Shown piece by piece: positions 6,757 through 27,900 of a DNA stretch of 32,000 bases. The position numbers were made by a program, and so were the translations under genes. Location of the stretch: the NCBI GenBank assembly GCA_963706795.1, contig OY970170.1, positions 750,001 through 782,000 on the forward strand. Reading direction: 5' to 3'. Origin of the DNA: Candidatus Saccharimonadota bacterium. GTDB taxonomy: Bacteria; Patescibacteriota; Gracilibacteria; BD1-5; UBA2023. The notes beneath the pieces are model-generated. The model saw nothing but the letters and a program-made list of their open reading frames with translations. It had not been told where the DNA came from and did not search any database. Every line of letters begins with the position of its first letter. Position 1 is the stretch's first letter.

Positions 6757-7524
6757 ATGAAACTCATTTCATGGAACGTCAACGGAATCCGTGCCTGCGT
6801 AAATAAGGGATTTCTCGACTATCTCCGCATCGAAAATCCTGATGTTATCGGGCTTCAAGAAGTAAAAGCAAAGGAAGATCAAAACCCCATTCTTGCCGAG
6901 CTTCAAGATCTTGGATATCAGGTTATTTGGAATCACGCCGATCGTCCTGGATATTCAGGAACAGCAGTTTTCTCAAAAATTGCACCAAAATCCATCATGT
7001 TCGCACTCGATAATTCGATCGAAGACGACAACGAAGGCCGCGTAACAACGATTGAATTCCCTGATTTTTACTACGTCACGGTCTATACGCCAAACTCCAA
7101 ACGTGAGCTCGAGCGTCTCGCCTATCGACAGCGATGGGACGTCGCGTTTTATCATTACATGAAGGAGCTCGAGAAGAAAAAACCCGTCATTTTTTGTGGG
7201 GATCTCAATGTTGCACACAAAGAAATCGACCTCACGAATCCTCGAACTAATCGAGGAAATGCCGGATTTACAGACGAAGAACGCGCTGGATTTGAGAGAT
7301 TTTTAGGAGGCGGCTTTGTGGATACATTCCGACATTTTTATCCAGATACTCCCGAGATGTATACGTGGTGGTCAAATTTTGCAAATTCGCGAGCGAAGAA
7401 TGTGGGATGGCGCATCGATTATTTTATGATGTCAGATCATTTTAAAGATAGTCTTCAGAGCGCCTTTATCCGCCCAGATATCATGGGCTCAGATCATTGT
7501 CCTGTAGGCATCGAGATCAATTAA
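6757..7524 (+). CDS. xth: Exodeoxyribonuclease III (AP endonuclease)
   Basis: MKLISWNVNGIRA..., LQEVK, GDLNVAH and SDHCPV are ExoIII/APE1 family motifs. 255 aa. Confidence 0.93.
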   Translation: MKLISWNVNGIRACVNKGFLDYLRIENPDVIGLQEVKAKEDQNPILAELQDLGYQVIWNHADRPGYSGTAVFSKIAPKSIMFALDNSIEDDNEGRVTTIEFPDFYYVTVYTPNSKRELERLAYRQRWDVAFYHYMKELEKKKPVIFCGDLNVAHKEIDLTNPRTNRGNAGFTDEERAGFERFLGGGFVDTFRHFYPDTPEMYTWWSNFANSRAKNVGWRIDYFMMSDHFKDSLQSAFIRPDIMGSDHCPVGIEIN

Positions 7525-7530
7525 AAATAT

Positions 7531-7566
7531 CCTCCGAAGCTCGTAAGAGCGAAGGAGGTTTTTTTA
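7531..7566 (+). terminator. Intrinsic terminator after xth (CCTCCGAAGCTCGTAAGAGCGAAGGAGG plus T-run)
   Basis: Same architecture as 1222-1249. The inner stem is capped by a GTAA (GNRA) tetraloop and followed by T7. Confidence 0.7.
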
Positions 7567-7666
7567 ATTACGCATCTGAGAATTAATACATAATTAACCA
7601 TTCAGAATATACTGTTGCTGCCAAGGAATAATTCTTTGACGCAGCATACAAATATAGGAGAAAATC

Positions 7667-8122
7667 ATGGTACATCAGCTCCTTACTGATGAGGCTCAAT
7701 TAGAGATAGGTACGCAATTTGCCTCTCTTCAACACGCACTGATGCAAAAGATGTTTCGAGATATCGCACGCATGGTAGCGAATCAAGAAAATATCATGGA
7801 CCACCCCTTGATTTTAGGATTAAGTCCTCATGTGCGTGAAATGGTTGCAAAAATAGATCGCATAAATTTGCTACTCTTTATGAGTAGACTCAAGGAATGT
7901 CACTTTAATATCAAATACACATCAACGGTATCACTCCTTCCAGTGGTGACGCATATGTCAGAAGTCGAAAAGATTTTTGCAAATGTTGTCATGGTAGATG
8001 GACAGAAGACCCTATTTCCTCCATCACTTTTTGAGCCGAGTATTCACGAACGTAATGATTGTGATGACAAGGGTCTCAAAAACGATATAGATTTTGAGTG
8101 CAGCGGTACTATCTCGTATTAG
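7667..8122 (+). CDS. Hypothetical protein, family 1 of island A (151 aa, C-terminal motif DIDFECSGTISY)
   Basis: AGGAG Shine-Dalgarno 6 nt before the ATG, no in-frame TGA, and a terminator downstream. Collinear paralog of 9398-9850. Confidence 0.7.
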   Translation: MVHQLLTDEAQLEIGTQFASLQHALMQKMFRDIARMVANQENIMDHPLILGLSPHVREMVAKIDRINLLLFMSRLKECHFNIKYTSTVSLLPVVTHMSEVEKIFANVVMVDGQKTLFPPSLFEPSIHERNDCDDKGLKNDIDFECSGTISY

Positions 8123-8150
8123 ATATGACCATGCTCGTATGCAAAATTTA

Positions 8151-8180
8151 AAAATCACCTACCAAGAGGTAGGTGATTTT
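8151..8180. terminator. Bidirectional terminator between convergent island-A genes
   Basis: ATCACCTACC-AAGA-GGTAGGTGAT 10-bp stem flanked by A- and T-runs. Confidence 0.65.
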
Positions 8181-8186
8181 ATTGCG

Positions 8187-8648
8187 TTATGGAAGTTTGA
8201 CGAATGCGGCATTTAGGGCTATTTCTACAGCATCAAACTTCTTGACTACTTCAAGCAATCGGGGCTTGAATTCTTCCCCTTGTGACCACCATGTTACCAT
8301 GGAGACAAAATTGAAGAGTAGACTCTTGATTGGTGTTATCAGTGATTGATGATACTGAATCACGGGGATAATTTGTTCAAGTACATCGAGAAGCAAAGTT
8401 GCATCTGATGGATTGAACATGTTTCTTTCGAGGTTTGTGGTAATCGTCATGAGATGCACTGCAGGTGTGTTCATACCTGCTTTGCAAAGTGTTTCTAAGA
8501 CGAAAGCCACCTGTCCTTGAGCTTCTTTTTTAAATTTTTTGATGTGGATTTCACCAAAATCTGGTGGTTCACATCCGGCTAAAAATGCCGTAAATGCGAG
8601 TTCGTCCTCCTGTGGAGTACACCTCTTGTCTTTTGTGTAGTGACTCAT
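8187..8648 (-). CDS. Hypothetical protein, family 2 of island A (153 aa, predicted helical)
   Basis: GGAGG Shine-Dalgarno 5 nt before the ATG. Ungapped similarity to 8786-9166 (E.H[IF]K.FKK and P[IM]K..L...V..V....P........FDA.E). Confidence 0.7.
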   Translation of the reverse strand: MSHYTKDKRCTPQEDELAFTAFLAGCEPPDFGEIHIKKFKKEAQGQVAFVLETLCKAGMNTPAVHLMTITTNLERNMFNPSDATLLLDVLEQIIPVIQYHQSLITPIKSLLFNFVSMVTWWSQGEEFKPRLLEVVKKFDAVEIALNAAFVKLP

Positions 8649-8697
8649 TTCGACCTCCTTCGGTATTTGTTTGTGGACTGTCCCAATTCGGGTGAGA

Positions 8698-8727
8698 TGA
8701 TTACATCTATTTATATGACTTTGTCAA
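8698..8727 (-). promoter_or_regulatory. Candidate sigma70-type promoter for 8187-8648
   Basis: The minus strand reads TTGACA, an 18-nt spacer, then TAATCA, about 40 nt upstream of the SD and ATG. Confidence 0.35.
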
Positions 8728-8748
8728 AATAGAGAAGAAACCCTATGT

Positions 8749-8781
8749 AAAAACACCTGCTTTTGGCAGGTGTTTTTTTGT
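8749..8781. terminator. Bidirectional hairpin terminator 3' of 8786-9166
   Basis: CACCTGC-TTTTG-GCAGGTG stem flanked by A5 and T7. Confidence 0.65.
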
Positions 8782-8785
8782 TGAG

Positions 8786-9166
8786 CTATTGTACGACTGG
8801 GGAGATATTTTCCGCAGCGTCGAATAGTGTGGCTAGCCTTCTGATATGAGGACTGAGTTTATGATATTCTTTAATTCCACTGACGTACCAAACCAGCTTT
8901 GTAAGCATCCGCTTCATAGGTTCATAAATTGATGTGAACCTTTGGAGACGCACCATCTCTTCACATCCCTTAAGTAAGTACATGATGTCATCTTCATCGA
9001 AGCCTGTGTTGCTCTCGAGTCTGAGATGAATATCGTGAAATATTGCAGCTGTATCGCTCAATTCTGCTGGCAAATTTGCTTCTTGAATACTCGTTACCAG
9101 TGTTGGAAAGTACTTTTTGAATTCCTTGAAGTGACTTTCAGTTACTTGATCAGGAAGCTGATCCAT
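8786..9166 (-). CDS. Hypothetical protein, family 2 of island A (126 aa, predicted helical)
   Basis: GGAGG Shine-Dalgarno 6 nt before the ATG. Paralog of 8187-8648. Confidence 0.7.
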   Translation of the reverse strand: MDQLPDQVTESHFKEFKKYFPTLVTSIQEANLPAELSDTAAIFHDIHLRLESNTGFDEDDIMYLLKGCEEMVRLQRFTSIYEPMKRMLTKLVWYVSGIKEYHKLSPHIRRLATLFDAAENISPVVQ

Positions 9167-9397
9167 ATCACACCTCCGTTCTGTCTATATTTGTTTGTAG
9201 GATTACTGCTTTGTCGTCGGCAATTACATTCATTTAAGAATGGTTGTCAATTTACACTAAGGTTTTGATAGAGATCTGATTATTAAATATTAATTTAATT
9301 TTTGCTTAAAGAATTAAGAAATAATTAATAGTCGAATGTATACTCAAATATGTCGGAGAATGTTTCTTCGATTCAAACACATACACAGGAGTTCATC

Positions 9398-9850
9398 ATG
9401 GCCGTAACACAAGCTTTGTCTCTGAATACCCAAGTAAATGTTGGTGCAATTGTAGCAGGTGCATTTGATGCCGCCATCAAGAAAGCTCTGCTGGATCTTG
9501 CAACTGCCGCAACCAGTCAGGAGCCTGCCCATCTACATCCTATGATTGCGAGCTTGGGTGCAGATGTACAACAAGGCATTCAATCGATTAGTTCCGATGA
9601 TCTGCTGCAGTTCATCGGAAATCAAGCAGGCTGTGTCTATAGTATAGATTTTCTCCCTGCTGTACCACGTCCGCAGGTGCCGCTCCAATTTGAAACAACC
9701 AAAATCAGACTGGATGTCGAAAAGCCTGCAGAGGGTGCTGAATCAATCTTCTCAGCTGAATTGTTTATCGGTGGTGAAGTTACTTGTGACGTCCGTGGAA
9801 GCACTCGCGGTGATATCGATATCCGCTGCGGTGGCACTATTCGCTTCTAA
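9398..9850 (+). CDS. Hypothetical protein, family 1 of island A (150 aa, C-terminal motif DIDIRCGGTIRF)
   Basis: AGGAG 6 nt before ATG 9398; the track's start at 9350 has no SD. Collinear with 7667-8122: HP[LM]I..L...V...[VI]..I....LL.F......C.[FY].I.[YF] at the same offset, with the same C-terminal motif. Confidence 0.7.
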   Translation: MAVTQALSLNTQVNVGAIVAGAFDAAIKKALLDLATAATSQEPAHLHPMIASLGADVQQGIQSISSDDLLQFIGNQAGCVYSIDFLPAVPRPQVPLQFETTKIRLDVEKPAEGAESIFSAELFIGGEVTCDVRGSTRGDIDIRCGGTIRF

Positions 9851-9900
9851 TAAGTATTTAATATCACCTTTTGGTTGGTATTAAAACTTAACTTACTTTA

Positions 9901-9928
9901 CCTCGGACTTTCGTTCGAGGTTTTTTTT
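9901..9928 (+). terminator. Intrinsic terminator after 9398-9850
   Basis: CCTCGGA-CTTTCG-TTCGAGG followed by T8. Confidence 0.6.
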
Positions 9929-9929
9929 G

Positions 9930-9969
9930 AGCGTGAGTTTTTCTTGATATATCTTGAAAAACTCACGCT
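9930..9969. promoter_or_regulatory. 13-bp perfect inverted repeat upstream of sufC (candidate operator of the suf operon)
   Basis: AGCGTGAGTTTTT-N14-AAAAACTCACGCT, 37 nt upstream of the sufC ATG. No T-run follows, so it is unlikely to be a terminator. Confidence 0.35.
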
Positions 9970-12184: not shown

Positions 12185-12612
12185 ATGTTTATTACTTTTG
12201 ATCCTAAAACCCTCGCAGACTTCCATACCCGTTTGGTACAGGAAGTTTTTGTGTGATTTATCTCAAAAGGTTGCGAAGGCACTAAAGTCGAAGTCCTCGA
12301 ATCATTCAAAAAAACAGATCTCAGCCAAGAATGATCGAGTGAAATCACGATCTATTTCCGAGAATCAGATCGAAGCAAGCTCGAGTGAGCTCGTATTACA
12401 CACGCGGGTGCAAAATGGATATTTGCTTCTGCCAATGTTACTGGTCGCTGCGGTTGTGGGTCGAGTTTTTCTTTTGAGAAGAAGTTAGTAGACAAGAGCA
12501 AAATTGCATCGCTTCGTGCAGCACTTGGCGGAGTGTCCCAATCTGCAAAAACAAAGATCGAAGCCTATGCTCTGCAATGTGAAAAAAATCCGCTCCCTGT
12601 GGGAACGGATTA
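12185..12612 (+). CDS. sufA: A-type Fe-S carrier (IscA/SufA/HesB family) with a ~45-aa C-terminal extension
   Basis: Missed by the ORF track because of three in-frame TGA codons. The translation MFITFDPKTLADFHTRLV...F(G)FISKGCEGTKVEV...ANVTGRCGCGSSFSF carries the family Cys (GC.G) and the terminal CGCG.SF motif. Stop TAA at 12610-12612. Confidence 0.7.
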
Positions 12613-12792
12613 AAGCGTTGAAGTATAGTGAAAGAAAAAAAGTATGCGTGATACCACGTATTCACAAATCATTGCAAACGCGCAGAGCAGCACTACCACC
12701 ACTATACAGAGCTTGAGTATGACCATCCAGTCAGACTTCGTTAGGCTCATAAATGAGCCGAATTGCAGCCGATTGTACATTCTTCGCCACAT
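12610..12792 (-). CDS. Small (60 aa) single-TM hydrophobic protein encoded antisense within the suf operon
   Basis: GGAGG 4 nt before ATG 12792. Its own TTGACT-16 nt-TATAAG promoter lies at 12850-12823. Contains the TM segment VILKLCIVVVVLLCAFAMICEYVV. True stop TAA. Confidence 0.45.
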   Translation of the reverse strand: MWRRMYNRLQFGSFMSLTKSDWMVILKLCIVVVVLLCAFAMICEYVVSRILFFFHYTSTL

Positions 12793-12822
12793 ATTACCTC
12801 CTTGCTCTACGTAGACACATTC

Positions 12823-20736: not shown

Positions 20737-21297
20737 ATGAATATGATCCGCTTCGTGCTCTTACTTCTCGTAGTTACTCAGACTTTTTTGGGTACGGGTT
20801 TTGCAGTTTTTGCAGATAATCCAGGCATGGGAAGTTACGATGGAACGACACCCGCACCAAAAACAGAAGCCGACCCCTATGCCAATGAGACTAAAAAACT
20901 CAGTGGACAATGAAACCAAGGGGCAAACACTGCAACACCCACAGCAGGATCTGAAGATTCAGGGCCATGTTCGTATCAGGAATGATCTTCGGTATCCGAT
21001 ATGCTCAGTGGTTGTCAGCCAAACAAGGTCATTACTGCGGATAATTACGACTATAAAACTGGTGCGCGAGACCGCATCGTGGCAATTGCCAATCAGATTA
21101 TCATCGTTGGATCACTTCTCTCTATTGGTGCGATCGTCTATGCAGGATTTCTCTATGTAACCTCAATGGGTGACGACGAGCGTATCAAAACCGGTAAGAA
21201 TTCCCTCAAATTTGGAATTATTGGATTTGTGGTCATGCTCCTCTCATTTCCTCTCGTTAATGCCATCGTCCGTCTCTTTTATCAGATCGGAGGATAG
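20737..21297 (+). CDS. VirB2/TrbC-like (T4SS-pilin-like) protein 4, 186 aa, with one DPYANETKKL motif
   Basis: ATG 20737 and the track ORF at 21001-21297 are in the same frame, joined through two TGA codons. It has a signal peptide, a Cys pair, and two TM helices around YAGFLYVTSMGDDERIKTGK. Confidence 0.75.
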
Positions 21298-21299
21298 AT

Positions 21300-22136
21300 A
21301 TGAAGTTCCCTAGATCAGCCGTTATTCTCTTTGCATTTTATGCAGCGCTTTTTAGCGCTCTTTTGCTTTTTGTACAGGTGGCATATTCTCCGATTAGTGG
21401 GAATTCTCCTTCTCAATCTGAGAATATCGAAGCATCAGACCTTCATTTTGATATGACTTCTTCTGGTCTCACAGCTCGTGAACAGGTGATTCAACGTCTT
21501 GAAAGTGCACCCGAAAAACCCCCCTACGAAATCATCCTTCGAGCGACCAGTGATCGTGCGCCAGCACTCAAAAAACTTCTCGAGTCTACGCTCGCCTCAT
21601 CTTTTATATCCGAGCGTGTAACACCGATTTCTGTCGAAATGGTTGATAATCGCACGGAGCCACGTGGGCAGACTTCGAATGCTGGGGTTAGTATTATTGC
21701 TACGATTCCTTCGGATAGCGAATTTCTCAAGGTATTTGTGCACGAATTGGGTCACGTAGTAGATCTACATTTTTTGATGAAAAAAACCTTTTCATCTGAT
21801 CCAAGCGATGAATTTTATGCAATCTCATGGATCGACTACAACCAAAAGAAAAAAGGGATGAATGTCGACGATTTTGTGAGTGGATATGCGCTCACAAACA
21901 AATATGAGGACTTTGCAGAATCATTCGCATTTTATGTATTTCATAATGACGAATTCAAGCGACGTGCCTCTAAAAATGCATCGCTTGCGCGAAAATATAA
22001 TTTCCTCGCGGATAATGTCTTTGCTTCGGCAGAATTTCAGGGTACTTCGTTTGAGGCTAAGAGTGTTCCCAGCTATATTTGGGACACGACCAAAGTTGCC
22101 ATCAAAACAAACAAATATTTGTTTTACCTGCGATAA
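21300..22136 (+). CDS. Membrane-anchored HExxH zinc metallopeptidase (gluzincin-like)
   Basis: An N-terminal TM helix, VFVHELGHVVD (HExxH), and about 55 aa downstream YEDFAESFAFYVF, a candidate third-ligand Glu as in the MtfA/ATLF-like families. GGAGG lies 6 nt before the ATG. Confidence 0.75.
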   Translation: MKFPRSAVILFAFYAALFSALLLFVQVAYSPISGNSPSQSENIEASDLHFDMTSSGLTAREQVIQRLESAPEKPPYEIILRATSDRAPALKKLLESTLASSFISERVTPISVEMVDNRTEPRGQTSNAGVSIIATIPSDSEFLKVFVHELGHVVDLHFLMKKTFSSDPSDEFYAISWIDYNQKKKGMNVDDFVSGYALTNKYEDFAESFAFYVFHNDEFKRRASKNASLARKYNFLADNVFASAEFQGTSFEAKSVPSYIWDTTKVAIKTNKYLFYLR

Positions 22137-24850: not shown

Positions 24851-24972
24851 GAATTTCCTCCAAAACGCGAACTTCACGTTCAAAGCTCCGTTTCCTCGCT
24901 CGGAGTAGCTTCCGCTACACCTTGCAGCGGTTCTCGCTTTTCACGCGAATTTCATCGTTTTTGAGGAAATTC
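24851..24972. other. ~122-nt highly structured element (long imperfect closing helix plus internal hairpins); candidate ncRNA or 3'-UTR element
   Basis: GAATTTCCTCCAAAACG (24851-24867) pairs with CGTTTTTGAGGAAATTC (24956-24972) at 16/17 positions. The helix continues with GAACTTCACG/CGCGAATTTC. Internal hairpins include GTAGC-TTCC-GCTAC (a GGAA tetraloop on the minus strand) and CCGCT...AGCGG. Confidence 0.35.
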
Positions 24973-24990
24973 TGAGGTGTATATGTTTAA

Positions 24991-25022
24991 AAAAATCACC
25001 CCGTTTCGGGGTGATTTTTTTA
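24991..25022 (+). terminator. Intrinsic terminator (ATCACCCCG-TTT-CGGGGTGAT plus T7)
   Basis: 9-bp GC-rich stem flanked by A7 and T7. Confidence 0.75.
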
Positions 25023-25045
25023 TTTTGTTGAATTTTTGCCATATT

Positions 25046-25071
25046 AAAAACCATCGTGAGATGGTTTTTTT
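25046..25071 (-). terminator. Hairpin terminator 3' of 25078-25485
   Basis: AAAAACCATC-GTGA-GATGGTTTTTTT. Confidence 0.65.
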
Positions 25072-25077
25072 ATACAA

Positions 25078-25485
25078 TTAATTTAATGCAATAATGCCTT
25101 TGATACTTGGAATAAGACCTATGTTACTCAAATTCTTTTTCTTTTCTGAGTATTCATCTGCTAGATCTTTACCAAGGCAACTCTTGACGATATTTTGAAA
25201 GTCTTCGAGTGCTCTTAAATCTTCCCAGCGGCTACTGTTAATACCTATTTTTGCTTCCGTAACATACTCCACAAGAGCGATAATTTGCATTCCTGTTTTA
25301 TCAGCCAAAAGTGTTGCAAAGAACGCTTTAAAGCCAACTGTATACTTTAATTGATTTTTAATCTTATCTCCGATGAGATTAATTTTATCAATTAATGTAA
25401 AATCGGGATATGCATAAAGCGTCATCCTTAAAGCTCTTTGTATTACTCTAATGTATTGCTCTGTATTTTTGTTATTATTTAACAT
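25078..25485 (-). CDS. Hypothetical protein, island B (135 aa)
   Basis: AGGAG 5 nt before the ATG, no TGA codons, AT-rich codon choice, and terminators on both sides. Confidence 0.65.
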   Translation of the reverse strand: MLNNNKNTEQYIRVIQRALRMTLYAYPDFTLIDKINLIGDKIKNQLKYTVGFKAFFATLLADKTGMQIIALVEYVTEAKIGINSSRWEDLRALEDFQNIVKSCLGKDLADEYSEKKKNLSNIGLIPSIKGIIALN

Positions 25486-25600
25486 ATATTCTCCTGTTGA
25501 TATGCTTAGTCACTATATGTGCCAAAATTCCTTAATCAAATCGTCTGCCCTTTGTCTAAAAAATACTACCATAGCAAGTAGTACATGTAATTTTACCAGT

Positions 25601-25631
25601 AAAAAAGCCATCGATCTCGATGGCTTTTTTA
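25601..25631. terminator. Bidirectional terminator between the island-B genes
   Basis: AGCCATCGA-TC-TCGATGGCT flanked by A6 and T6. Confidence 0.7.
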
Positions 25632-25704
25632 GTTTTGTTGGGAGATAGACATCAGTCTATATTCGTCTGAATCCATCTCCACCCCTTTGTGGGCTTACTA
25701 CTTG

Positions 25705-26046
25705 TTACTCTTCGAGATATCCAGTGTCTCTTGCATTCTCTATGAGATCTGCAAGATCTGTTGATGATATTACCTCATATTCTTCTTCTTTGTCATAAGG
25801 GAGAACAATATCCATATCAACAAATTTTACACCGAGTTTCTCTGCAAGTTTTTCGATGAGAACATATACTTTCACGCCGTCATTATCCAAGATAAGATCG
25901 TCGAGAAAATCATGGAACTTATCTAAGTTATCCACACATTCACTGTATAGCTTATTAAGCATATTATGCGCTAGCGTAGTGCGTTGTGTCTTATTTGTTG
26001 CCTCAATTACTGCCTGAACTTCTTGTTTTAATGCATTAATTTCCAT
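25705..26046 (-). CDS. Hypothetical acidic protein, island B (113 aa)
   Basis: AGGAG 6 nt before the ATG, no TGA codons, and an acidic C-terminal half (DKEEEYEVISSTDLADLIENARDTGYLEE). Confidence 0.65.
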   Translation of the reverse strand: MEINALKQEVQAVIEATNKTQRTTLAHNMLNKLYSECVDNLDKFHDFLDDLILDNDGVKVYVLIEKLAEKLGVKFVDMDIVLPYDKEEEYEVISSTDLADLIENARDTGYLEE

Positions 26047-26243
26047 ATTTGACTCCTTTGTCTGTGAGTGGAAAAATTGTTTGTTTTTGCTACGTACGTC
26101 ATGATATATCTTTCTAAAAAAATGTATTTAGTTACCTACAGGATTGTGAAGTAACTTCCTATTTGTACTCCGTTCGATTTTTCTTTCAACTATTCTGCCT
26201 CGGATTTTGTCTCAGACACCATAGGCAGTGAAAGTTTCATTTC

Positions 26244-26271
26244 TTGCATTTTTAATGACATAAAATATACT
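26244..26271 (+). promoter_or_regulatory. Candidate sigma70-type promoter of the glyQS leader
   Basis: TTGCAT (26244-26249), a 16-nt spacer, then TATACT (26266-26271). Confidence 0.5.
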
Positions 26272-26277
26272 TCCTGA

Positions 26278-26410
26278 GTCTTCCATACGAGAACTGGCCT
26301 GGAAACCAGATTCGGTTGATAACATAGAGAGTCCTGTCATGTGACAGGGAACTCGGGTGGAACCGTCCCTAACCCGTGGGACCCCGAGACCTTACTGAAG
26401 GTCTTTTTTT
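26278..26410 (+). promoter_or_regulatory. T-box riboswitch leader (glycine-specific, unusually compact) with terminator
   Basis: Canonical antiterminator: CUCGGG (26352-57), a 7-nt bulge UGGAACC (26358-64), GUCCC/GGGAC, and CCCGAG (26383-88). A stem III-like hairpin, CCTGTCA-TG-TGACAGG, lies just upstream. Terminator AGACCTT-ACTG-AAGGTCT plus T7 at 26387-26410. A hairpin loop CCUGGAAA (26298-26305) presents GGA followed by A. Confidence 0.75.
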
Positions 26411-26447
26411 GATCCTTCAAACGGGCTATCTCTTCATCTTTTTTGTT

Positions 26448-27900
<1,453 letters not shown>

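Follow-up and report, generated by a model that had tools for sequence, protein, structure and literature searches.

Bacterial chromosomes contain flexible genomic islets and replacement-type slots, and phages carry so-called morons, autonomous units made up of a promoter, an open reading frame (ORF) and a terminator. In Bacteroidia, translation is independent of Shine-Dalgarno (SD) sequences: an anti-SD is present but little used, few genes are SD-led and the ribosomal protein bS21 is part of the sequestration mechanism. Here we describe two islands of SD-led genes without in-frame TGA in a bacterium that reads TGA as glycine (genetic code 25). The islands lie in a 32,000-nucleotide stretch, hereafter the window, that spans bases 750,001-782,000 of the single 1,267,896-bp contig (43.5% GC) of the genome. 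Predicted phages of Gracilibacteria are mostly compatible with genetic code 11, and 34 of 38 such phages carry no in-frame TGA, while code 25 is reported for the prophages of these hosts (Liu et al. 2023, mBio, PMC10746230). It has also been speculated that recoding causes imported genes to be misread and in this way protects from foreign DNA (Moreira et al. 2021, PMC8080830).

The six island genes and a 60-codon SD-led ORF elsewhere in the window are autonomous units, each consisting of an SD, a TGA-free ORF and an intrinsic terminator and each situated between conserved core genes. Roughly 4-5% of the genes in this genome, about 45 in number, belong to the class of SD-led genes as a whole; in the sister species it has about 21 members. 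We consider it likely, with a probability of about 0.65, that these cassettes are accessory genes derived from a gene pool that uses SD sequences and has TGA as a stop codon, and that they were set in neutral intergenic slots. They would have arrived by horizontal transfer from other bacteria, or from code-11-compatible phages and mobile elements.

With islets and morons the cassettes share a self-contained build including a terminator, a location between conserved genes, slot cargo that varies in a close relative, atypical composition and codon usage and an ORFan content. They differ in having no prophage context, integrase, att-like repeat or tRNA target, and their cargo departs from the host also in its genetic-code grammar and initiation signal. 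As in Bacteroidia, core genes here are SD-less with G-poor leaders, a partial anti-SD is retained in the 16S tail and a small minority of genes has a strong SD. Unlike in Bacteroidia, the anti-SD itself is altered (UCUCC, with UCUCU or CCUCU in relatives) and the SD-led minority is accessory rather than a regulated housekeeping set. In addition, bS21 was looked for in the genome and not found, in agreement with its frequent absence from this group (PMC9297842).

Among published gene pools, the code-11-compatible phages of Gracilibacteria and Absconditabacteria fit best (PMC10746230). Like the cassettes, they are genes of code-25 hosts without in-frame TGA that can be read in either code, and some of their termini carry several stops, as do those of two island genes listed below, A2 (TAA TAA) and A1 (TAG, one codon, TGA). 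Unlike these phages, the cassettes are single-gene units spread over the chromosome with no phage hallmark genes nearby. The published description did not cover SD usage, while the cassettes described here are SD-led. With respect to the speculation of Moreira et al. (PMC8080830), imported UGA-ending genes would be read through with glycine, and thyA and at least 14 other cassettes represent concrete cases; unlike in that proposal, the architecture of a TGA followed by a terminator is here quantified and compared with controls.

A changed genetic code is often called a firewall against gene exchange. On the reading favoured here, inbound DNA would cross it at a measurable rate, the visible cost of import being that a third of the cassettes finish on a codon that this host does not recognise as a stop, and one chromosome would hold two initiation regimes and two coding grammars. 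What is added to earlier work are two-genome controlled statistics, the position of the first TGA, terminators located in tails, a rate of TGA turnover and a survey of 16S tails. For the annotation of recoded genomes of the candidate phyla radiation (CPR), single-code gene callers overextend cassettes or pick the wrong start. The class may also be of use for spotting accessory, possibly host-interaction, genes in uncultured episymbionts and for asking if SD-dependent initiation still works where the anti-SD degenerates.

SD-led, TGA-free islands in a code-25 genome

The organism uses code 25 because TGA must be read as sense for long ORFs to cover the genome, a tRNA with anticodon UCA is present and adjoins tRNA-Gly(GCC), the sole class-I release factor is release factor 1 (RF1), scoring above its curated cut-off, with RF2 missing among the release factors of the genome, and about 63% of core-gene TGA codons align to GGN codons of a same-genus genome. 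This sister genome (G001) is a 91%-complete metagenome-assembled genome of 1.064 Mb in 33 contigs and serves as reference throughout for the genome under study (G000). Both transfer-messenger RNA (tmRNA) and SmpB were found in the genome. Genes were called genome-wide by our own iterative dicodon model, yielding 932 confident genes; gene calls and terminator calls are both home-made. The islands and SD-led genes of the window are as follows (window coordinates).

Island 1, 7538-9939: 2.4 kb, from the terminator of an xth-like gene (6757-7524) to the sufC promoter region; G001 has 112 bp at this position (blastn synteny)
Cassette A1, 7656-8122, plus strand: SD AGGAG at 7656-7660, 6 nt before ATG 7667; 151-aa ORFan (coding span 7667-8122); stop TAG; 0 TGA
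Terminator shared by the convergent A1 and B1, 8151-8180: perfect 13-bp hairpin with T-runs on both flanks
Cassette B1, 8187-8658, minus strand: SD GGAGG (8654-8658), start 8648; 153-aa ORFan (coding span 8187-8648); stop TAA; 0 TGA
Cassette B2, 8749-9177, minus strand: SD GGAGG (9173-9177), start 9166; 126 aa (coding span 8786-9166); stop TAG at 8786; terminator hairpin 8749-8777
Cassette A2, 9387-9921, plus strand: SD AGGAG at 9387-9391, ATG 9398; 150 aa (coding span 9398-9850); tandem TAA TAA at 9848-9853; terminator 9900-9921
Island 2, 25023-26216: 1.2-kb slot, from the terminator of a 657-aa gene to the conserved leader of glycyl-tRNA synthetase; G001 has 2.6 kb of different SD-led cargo
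Cassette C, 25046-25495, minus strand: SD AGGAG (25491-25495), start 25485; 135 aa (coding span 25078-25485, GC 32%); stop TAA; hairpin with T-run 25046-25070
Cassette D, 25600-26056, minus strand: SD AAAGGAG (26052-26058 region, core CTCCT at 26052-26056), start 26046; 113 aa (coding span 25705-26046); stop TAA; terminator hairpin 25600-25631
Small SD-led ORF, 12585-12801, minus strand: GGAGG 12797-12801, start 12792; 60 aa, hydrophobic; stop TAA at 12610; hairpin with T-run 12612-12585
Conserved SD-led gene (HExxH), 21289-22136, plus strand: GGAGG 21289-21293, ATG 21300; 278-aa zinc metallopeptidase-like protein; 0 TGA; G001 orthologue 63% identical

A preliminary description made from the window alone had reported SDs at all six island genes and at the small antisense ORF. 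All seven can be read in the sequence, one of them shifted by 1 nt (26052-26056, not 26053-26057), and they lie 4-6 nt from the ATG. The six genes, put at about 830 codons without TGA, amount to 828 codons (151 + 153 + 126 + 150 + 135 + 113) with 0 TGA. SD-less genes matched in length and GC predict 8.2 TGA codons for this set, and a count of zero was obtained in none of 20,000 draws. Two compositional claims mostly hold. Five of the six genes are AT-rich, with a GC content no higher than the 15th percentile of SD-less genes, and the exception, the gene at 9398-9850, has 48% GC (94th percentile). The shift in leucine codons from CTC towards TTA and TTG is real (CTC 53% and TTA + TTG 11% in the core, 26% and 28% in the islands; p = 8e-12), with CTC still the most frequent leucine codon of the island genes.

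Every island gene is served by a hairpin with a T-run, and the islands are built of diverged paralogue pairs: A1 and A2 are 30% identical, B1 and B2 28% identical, and D is a weak paralogue of C. No Pfam domain was found in the island proteins. Searched against 5.8 billion proteins, B1 matches only itself, and a profile search of A2 against 1.84 billion representatives returned just five distant relatives of family A, all singleton metagenome proteins. A2, B1 and C have no match in IMG/VR or GenBank phages, where the searches reach only fairly close relatives, and scans of genome and metagenome contigs and of the ESM Atlas gave nothing useful on relatives of the island proteins. The AlphaFold model of A2 (pLDDT 82) consists of a long helix, a small helical bundle and a four-stranded sheet and matches no solved fold (Foldseek E > 2; best VIA Z 3.2). 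The model of the C family is all-helical and, at pLDDT 62, too poor for a structure search.

Both slots can be compared with G001, whose contig C4 is syntenic with the window. The genes flanking island 1 (xth-like and sufC) are adjacent in G001 and 87% and 83% identical to their counterparts, while those flanking island 2 are 91% and 98% identical. Island 1 is consequently a presence/absence indel and island 2 a replacement; insertion and deletion cannot be told apart for island 1 because in the other genera searched the genes beside it are not linked to each other. In G001 the island 2 slot contains a 133-aa homologue of cassette C (28% identity), which is likewise SD-led and free of TGA. The NCBI model of this gene (L019 6041-6439) extends to 188 aa from an upstream SD-less start, which is probably wrong, since the 133 aa obtained from the SD-led start match the length of cassette C. 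Another gene in the same slot is SD-led (AAAGGAG, 7 nt, ATG) and has its first TGA at codon 319, followed by a terminator 26 nt later. On visual inspection alone, its product resembles a peptidase of the M23 type that carries a signal peptide.

Core genes show no SD signal. GGAG occurs at positions -16 to -4 in 20 of 932 core genes (2.1%) against 24 at a control position, G is depleted 5' of core starts, and the mean energy of pairing to the 16S tail is -0.92 kcal/mol at core starts, weaker than the -2.48 kcal/mol of internal ATGs. Scoring SD strength genome-wide against the 16S 3' end, as had been suggested, thus revealed no core SD signal. Within the window, 4 of 33 confidently called genes have GGAG at -16 to -4, three of them belonging to the islands and the fourth being the HExxH gene at 21300, which agrees with the earlier statement that this is the only core gene with a comparable SD. 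TGA occurs in the genome at 0.70 per 100 codons, inside the range of 0.5-1 proposed for core genes, and the counts cited for the 694-aa gene (5), the 475-aa sufB-like gene (3) and the terminal ORF (7, in the part within the window) were reproduced. As to whether SDs and TGA-free genes are spread among the core, core starts show no SD signal above the control, but being TGA-free is frequent in the core too (56% of SD-less genes of at most 160 aa).

Both 16S copies end in the tail ...GGAUGGACUAUCUCCUUUAAUC, whose anti-SD core is UCUCC and not CCUCC. This tail pairs perfectly with AAAGGAG(A) and with GGAGG through one G-U pair; GGAG is present in all seven SD sites of the window. All 25 further 16S genes of the same order (loci L092-L116, that of G001 included) are likewise non-canonical, ending in CUAUCUCCUU, CUAUCUCUUU or CUACCUCUUU, and CACCUCCU was found in none of these 3' ends. 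Across the order as sampled, most genomes have the anti-SD UCUCC, four members of the same family have UCUCU and a sister family has CCUCU.

A CA-rich motif (ACAAACAAATA or ACAAATATAG) is located 5-30 nt 5' of the SD in A1, B1, B2 and D (7645-7657, 8660-8680, 9185-9197 and 26080-26100) and may represent a common leader or promoter-proximal element. Promoter consensus scans of the cassettes scored no better than shuffles, so that promoters of their own are putative. The hairpin of the 60-codon ORF (12585-12613) overlaps the last codons of a convergent plus-strand gene (12185-12613, 142 aa, 3 TGA), which makes the true 3' end of that gene uncertain.

TGA position and terminators in the SD-led class

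Genome-wide, a strong SD was defined as AAGGAG, AGGAG(A/G) or GGAG(A/G)T located 4-9 nt from GGAG to ATG and leading an ORF of at least 80 codons, with the ATG either at the 5' end of a gene or in a stretch without core genes. This yields 53 ORFs here, compared to 7-21 for five scrambled cores, and 26 in G001; the 53 include an estimated 10-20 chance ORFs, and some SD-led ORFs, rich in TGA and with negative coding scores, indeed look spurious. The spacer distribution has a sharp peak at 6 nt (27/53). Most SD-led ORFs score near 0 in the core coding model (dicodon score about 0 compared to 0.34) and their leucine codon usage differs from that of the core (p = 3e-80). When the SD is defined more loosely, as a 5-mer, a G001 match over at least half the length exists for 20% of 85 SD-led ORFs, as opposed to 76% of 1,014 SD-less genes and 67% of SD-less genes of at most 160 aa. 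The SD is kept in at least six G001 orthologues. Among the 19 largest members the only Pfam domains are those of MCP, a ThiF-type enzyme and ThyA, and the class consists mostly of ORFans. The base following GGAG (A in 21, G in 24) was considered as a marker of host-adapted as opposed to canonical SDs and is uninformative, the motif definition itself biasing this position.

The raw TGA density of all 53 ORFs (0.61 per 100 codons) does not differ from that of the core (0.68) because chance ORFs and read-through tails are rich in TGA, and the signal becomes visible only once TGA position and terminators are considered. In the 23 SD-led ORFs that contain TGA, the first TGA is located in the last 40% of the ORF in 15 cases where 5.1 are expected (binomial 1e-5), while SD-less genes fit a uniform placement (91 observed, 94.7 expected). 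Downstream of the first TGA, the density in SD-led ORFs rises to 2.7 per 100 codons, which is the off-frame level. A total of 45 of the 53 ORFs, covering 7,564 TGA-free codons, have no TGA before 60% of their length and fit the standard code, as the first TGA, if any, sits where the gene should end; 15 of these 45 'end' on TGA. In G001, 21 of 26 SD-led ORFs are compatible with the standard code and a quarter end on TGA.

Most ORFs that end on TGA are followed by an intrinsic terminator, which begins 5-37 nt past the TGA and is complete before the next in-frame TAA or TAG. Under a fixed criterion, a terminator in the tail is found for 7/12 and 3/4 SD-led ORFs compared to 1/79 and 0/73 SD-less genes (Fisher 7e-7 and 5e-5). 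In the Pfam alignment of thyA the last profile position coincides with its TGA. A second codon model for atypical genes, meant to call cassettes without reference to SD or TGA, performed poorly and was dropped in favor of a TGA-blind filter requiring a terminator downstream of the ORF. In the genome under study, 25 SD-led genes pass this filter; their TGA density is 0.22 per 100 codons and 84% lack TGA altogether, where matched genes predict 27 TGA (P = 0.003) and 11 TGA-free genes (P = 0.001). In G001, 12 of 13 filtered genes are TGA-free compared to 8.2 expected (P = 0.015), but the total TGA count shows no departure from expectation (6 observed, 7.7 expected, P = 0.33).

These features suggest how the cassettes may be read by their host. 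The 16S tail (...CUAUCUCCUUUA) still pairs with AAAGGAG(A/G), so that cassettes would obtain SD-dependent initiation, and those ending in TAA or TAG, including all six window genes, would give rise to correct products. At TGA-ending cassettes glycine would be inserted and ribosomes would read through into the terminator and probably encounter tmRNA; with tmRNA and SmpB both encoded, tagging and degradation of such products is likely.

Three tandem SD-led paralogues (204-209 aa, 21-28% identical) without Pfam match lie outside the window at 745457-747683 of the genome (window -4543 to -2317). Each is led by GGAGGTGTAT or GGAGGTATAT followed by C or T and ATG. TGA closes the first two, whose terminators follow 22-35 nt further on, and TAA closes the third.

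Origin of the cassettes

Acquisition from a standard-code, SD-using background, as proposed in the preliminary description, is well supported for the class, while no donor or relative of the six window genes was found in 60 related genomes, 5.8 billion proteins, IMG/VR and GenBank phages or plasmids. This weighs against an outside origin, as do several further observations. These searches revealed no sequence link between the six genes and the code-11-compatible phages that otherwise fit best. All six stop at TAA or TAG and therefore carry no direct TGA-stop signature. The island flanks contain no direct repeats beyond chance-level 12-26-mers, and neither an integrase or other mobility gene nor a tRNA target is present at the islands. 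The gene calls come from our own dicodon model, and the SD-led set includes the chance ORFs estimated above. Cassette C is old within the genus, given its 28% identical homologue in the same G001 slot, and not all cassettes can consequently be recent. Finally, seven strong-SD genes common to both genomes (33-72% identity) contain 1 TGA in 2,836 codons over both species, so that a single past import followed by drift does not fit.

The last point has to be seen against a fast turnover in the core, where only 18-25% of TGA codons are also TGA in G001. As shared cassettes stay TGA-free nonetheless, avoidance persists: such genes are either re-imported or exchanged from a TGA-free pool, or held TGA-free by selection. 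The earlier suggestion of a separately regulated translational class stands to this extent, since the shared genes fit a maintained class or continued exchange with the outside. Synteny of shared SD-led genes was checked for cassette C and the HExxH gene only, and the others could be separate imports instead of orthologues. Tentatively, selection may keep a standing accessory pool code-neutral, that is SD-led and without in-frame TGA. Its members would travel between CPR bacteria of code 25 and cells of the standard code, with code-11-compatible phages as one possible vehicle, or alternatively would need to stay readable by standard-code machinery. Such a pool would explain TGA-free shared cassettes amid rapid core TGA turnover.

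A native translational class maintained by selection is an unlikely alternative origin. Here the cassettes would be long-term residents held SD-led and TGA-free, since they would have to function in conditions, or with machinery, in which UGA does not mean glycine, for example when tRNA(UCA) is limiting or when genes are used in both code-25 and standard-code cells via shared phages. The SDs kept in G001 orthologues, the seven shared genes free of TGA in the face of core turnover and the conservation of both features between cassette C and its diverged G001 homologue are what such a class predicts. It does not account for the third of the class that ends on TGA followed by a terminator, where a host with RF1 only and tRNA-UCA cannot stop, nor for the 80% of members without a match in the sister species and a codon usage not adapted to the host; the shared TGA-free genes, moreover, could themselves have been imported separately.

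Selection for efficient translation, with strong SDs and TGA avoidance marking highly expressed genes as in ribosomal protein genes, is very improbable. TGA density in SD-less genes does drop with rising codon adaptation, from 1.45 to 0.14 per 100 codons, and the ribosomal protein operon contains 10 TGA in 4,730 codons, but ribosomal protein genes carry no SD. The cassettes have the poorest codon adaptation (about 0 per codon) and low GC, properties that in the core go with the highest TGA densities (1.2-1.45 per 100 codons), and their TGA-plus-terminator ends are left unexplained by expression level. Chance SD-like motifs at spurious ORFs or assembly chimeras with foreign DNA are a highly unlikely explanation: scrambled motifs do yield 7-21 ORFs and some SD-led ORFs do look non-coding, but the 2.5-7-fold excess over controls, the sharp 6-nt spacing, the paired terminators, the diverged paralogues within islands, the SD-led cargo in the same slots of an independently assembled genome and the position of the islands, 1-2.4 kb inside one 1.27-Mb contig with syntenic core genes at both sides, all argue for genuine genes.

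Neighbouring genes and elements

The xth-like gene adjoining island 1 (6757-7524) contains 0 TGA here and in G001, whereas its 62-64% identical orthologues in two other genera (L008 and L009) contain 10 and 14, indicating that TGA use in this gene differs widely between genera. No tRNA gene or Rfam hit was found in the window. Next to island 2, the roughly 660 nt that precede the glycyl-tRNA synthetase ORF (26217-26877; ORF 26878-27900) match G001 at 92% identity and include a hairpin resembling a terminator (26386-26405). In the window the frame of this ORF is interrupted by a stop, past which the ORF opens at position 5 of the Pfam core; in G001 the open frame is 499 aa long. The upstream region gave no Rfam hit at the gathering score and could be a leader RNA (e.g. 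T-box-like), a frameshifted N-terminus or the result of a sequencing error. On the other side of island 2, a 17-nt inverted repeat (94% complementary, 88-nt spacer) is located at 24851-24972, between the 657-aa gene and its terminator (24988-25022). The region aligns with G001 and the repeat may form a structured 3' element.

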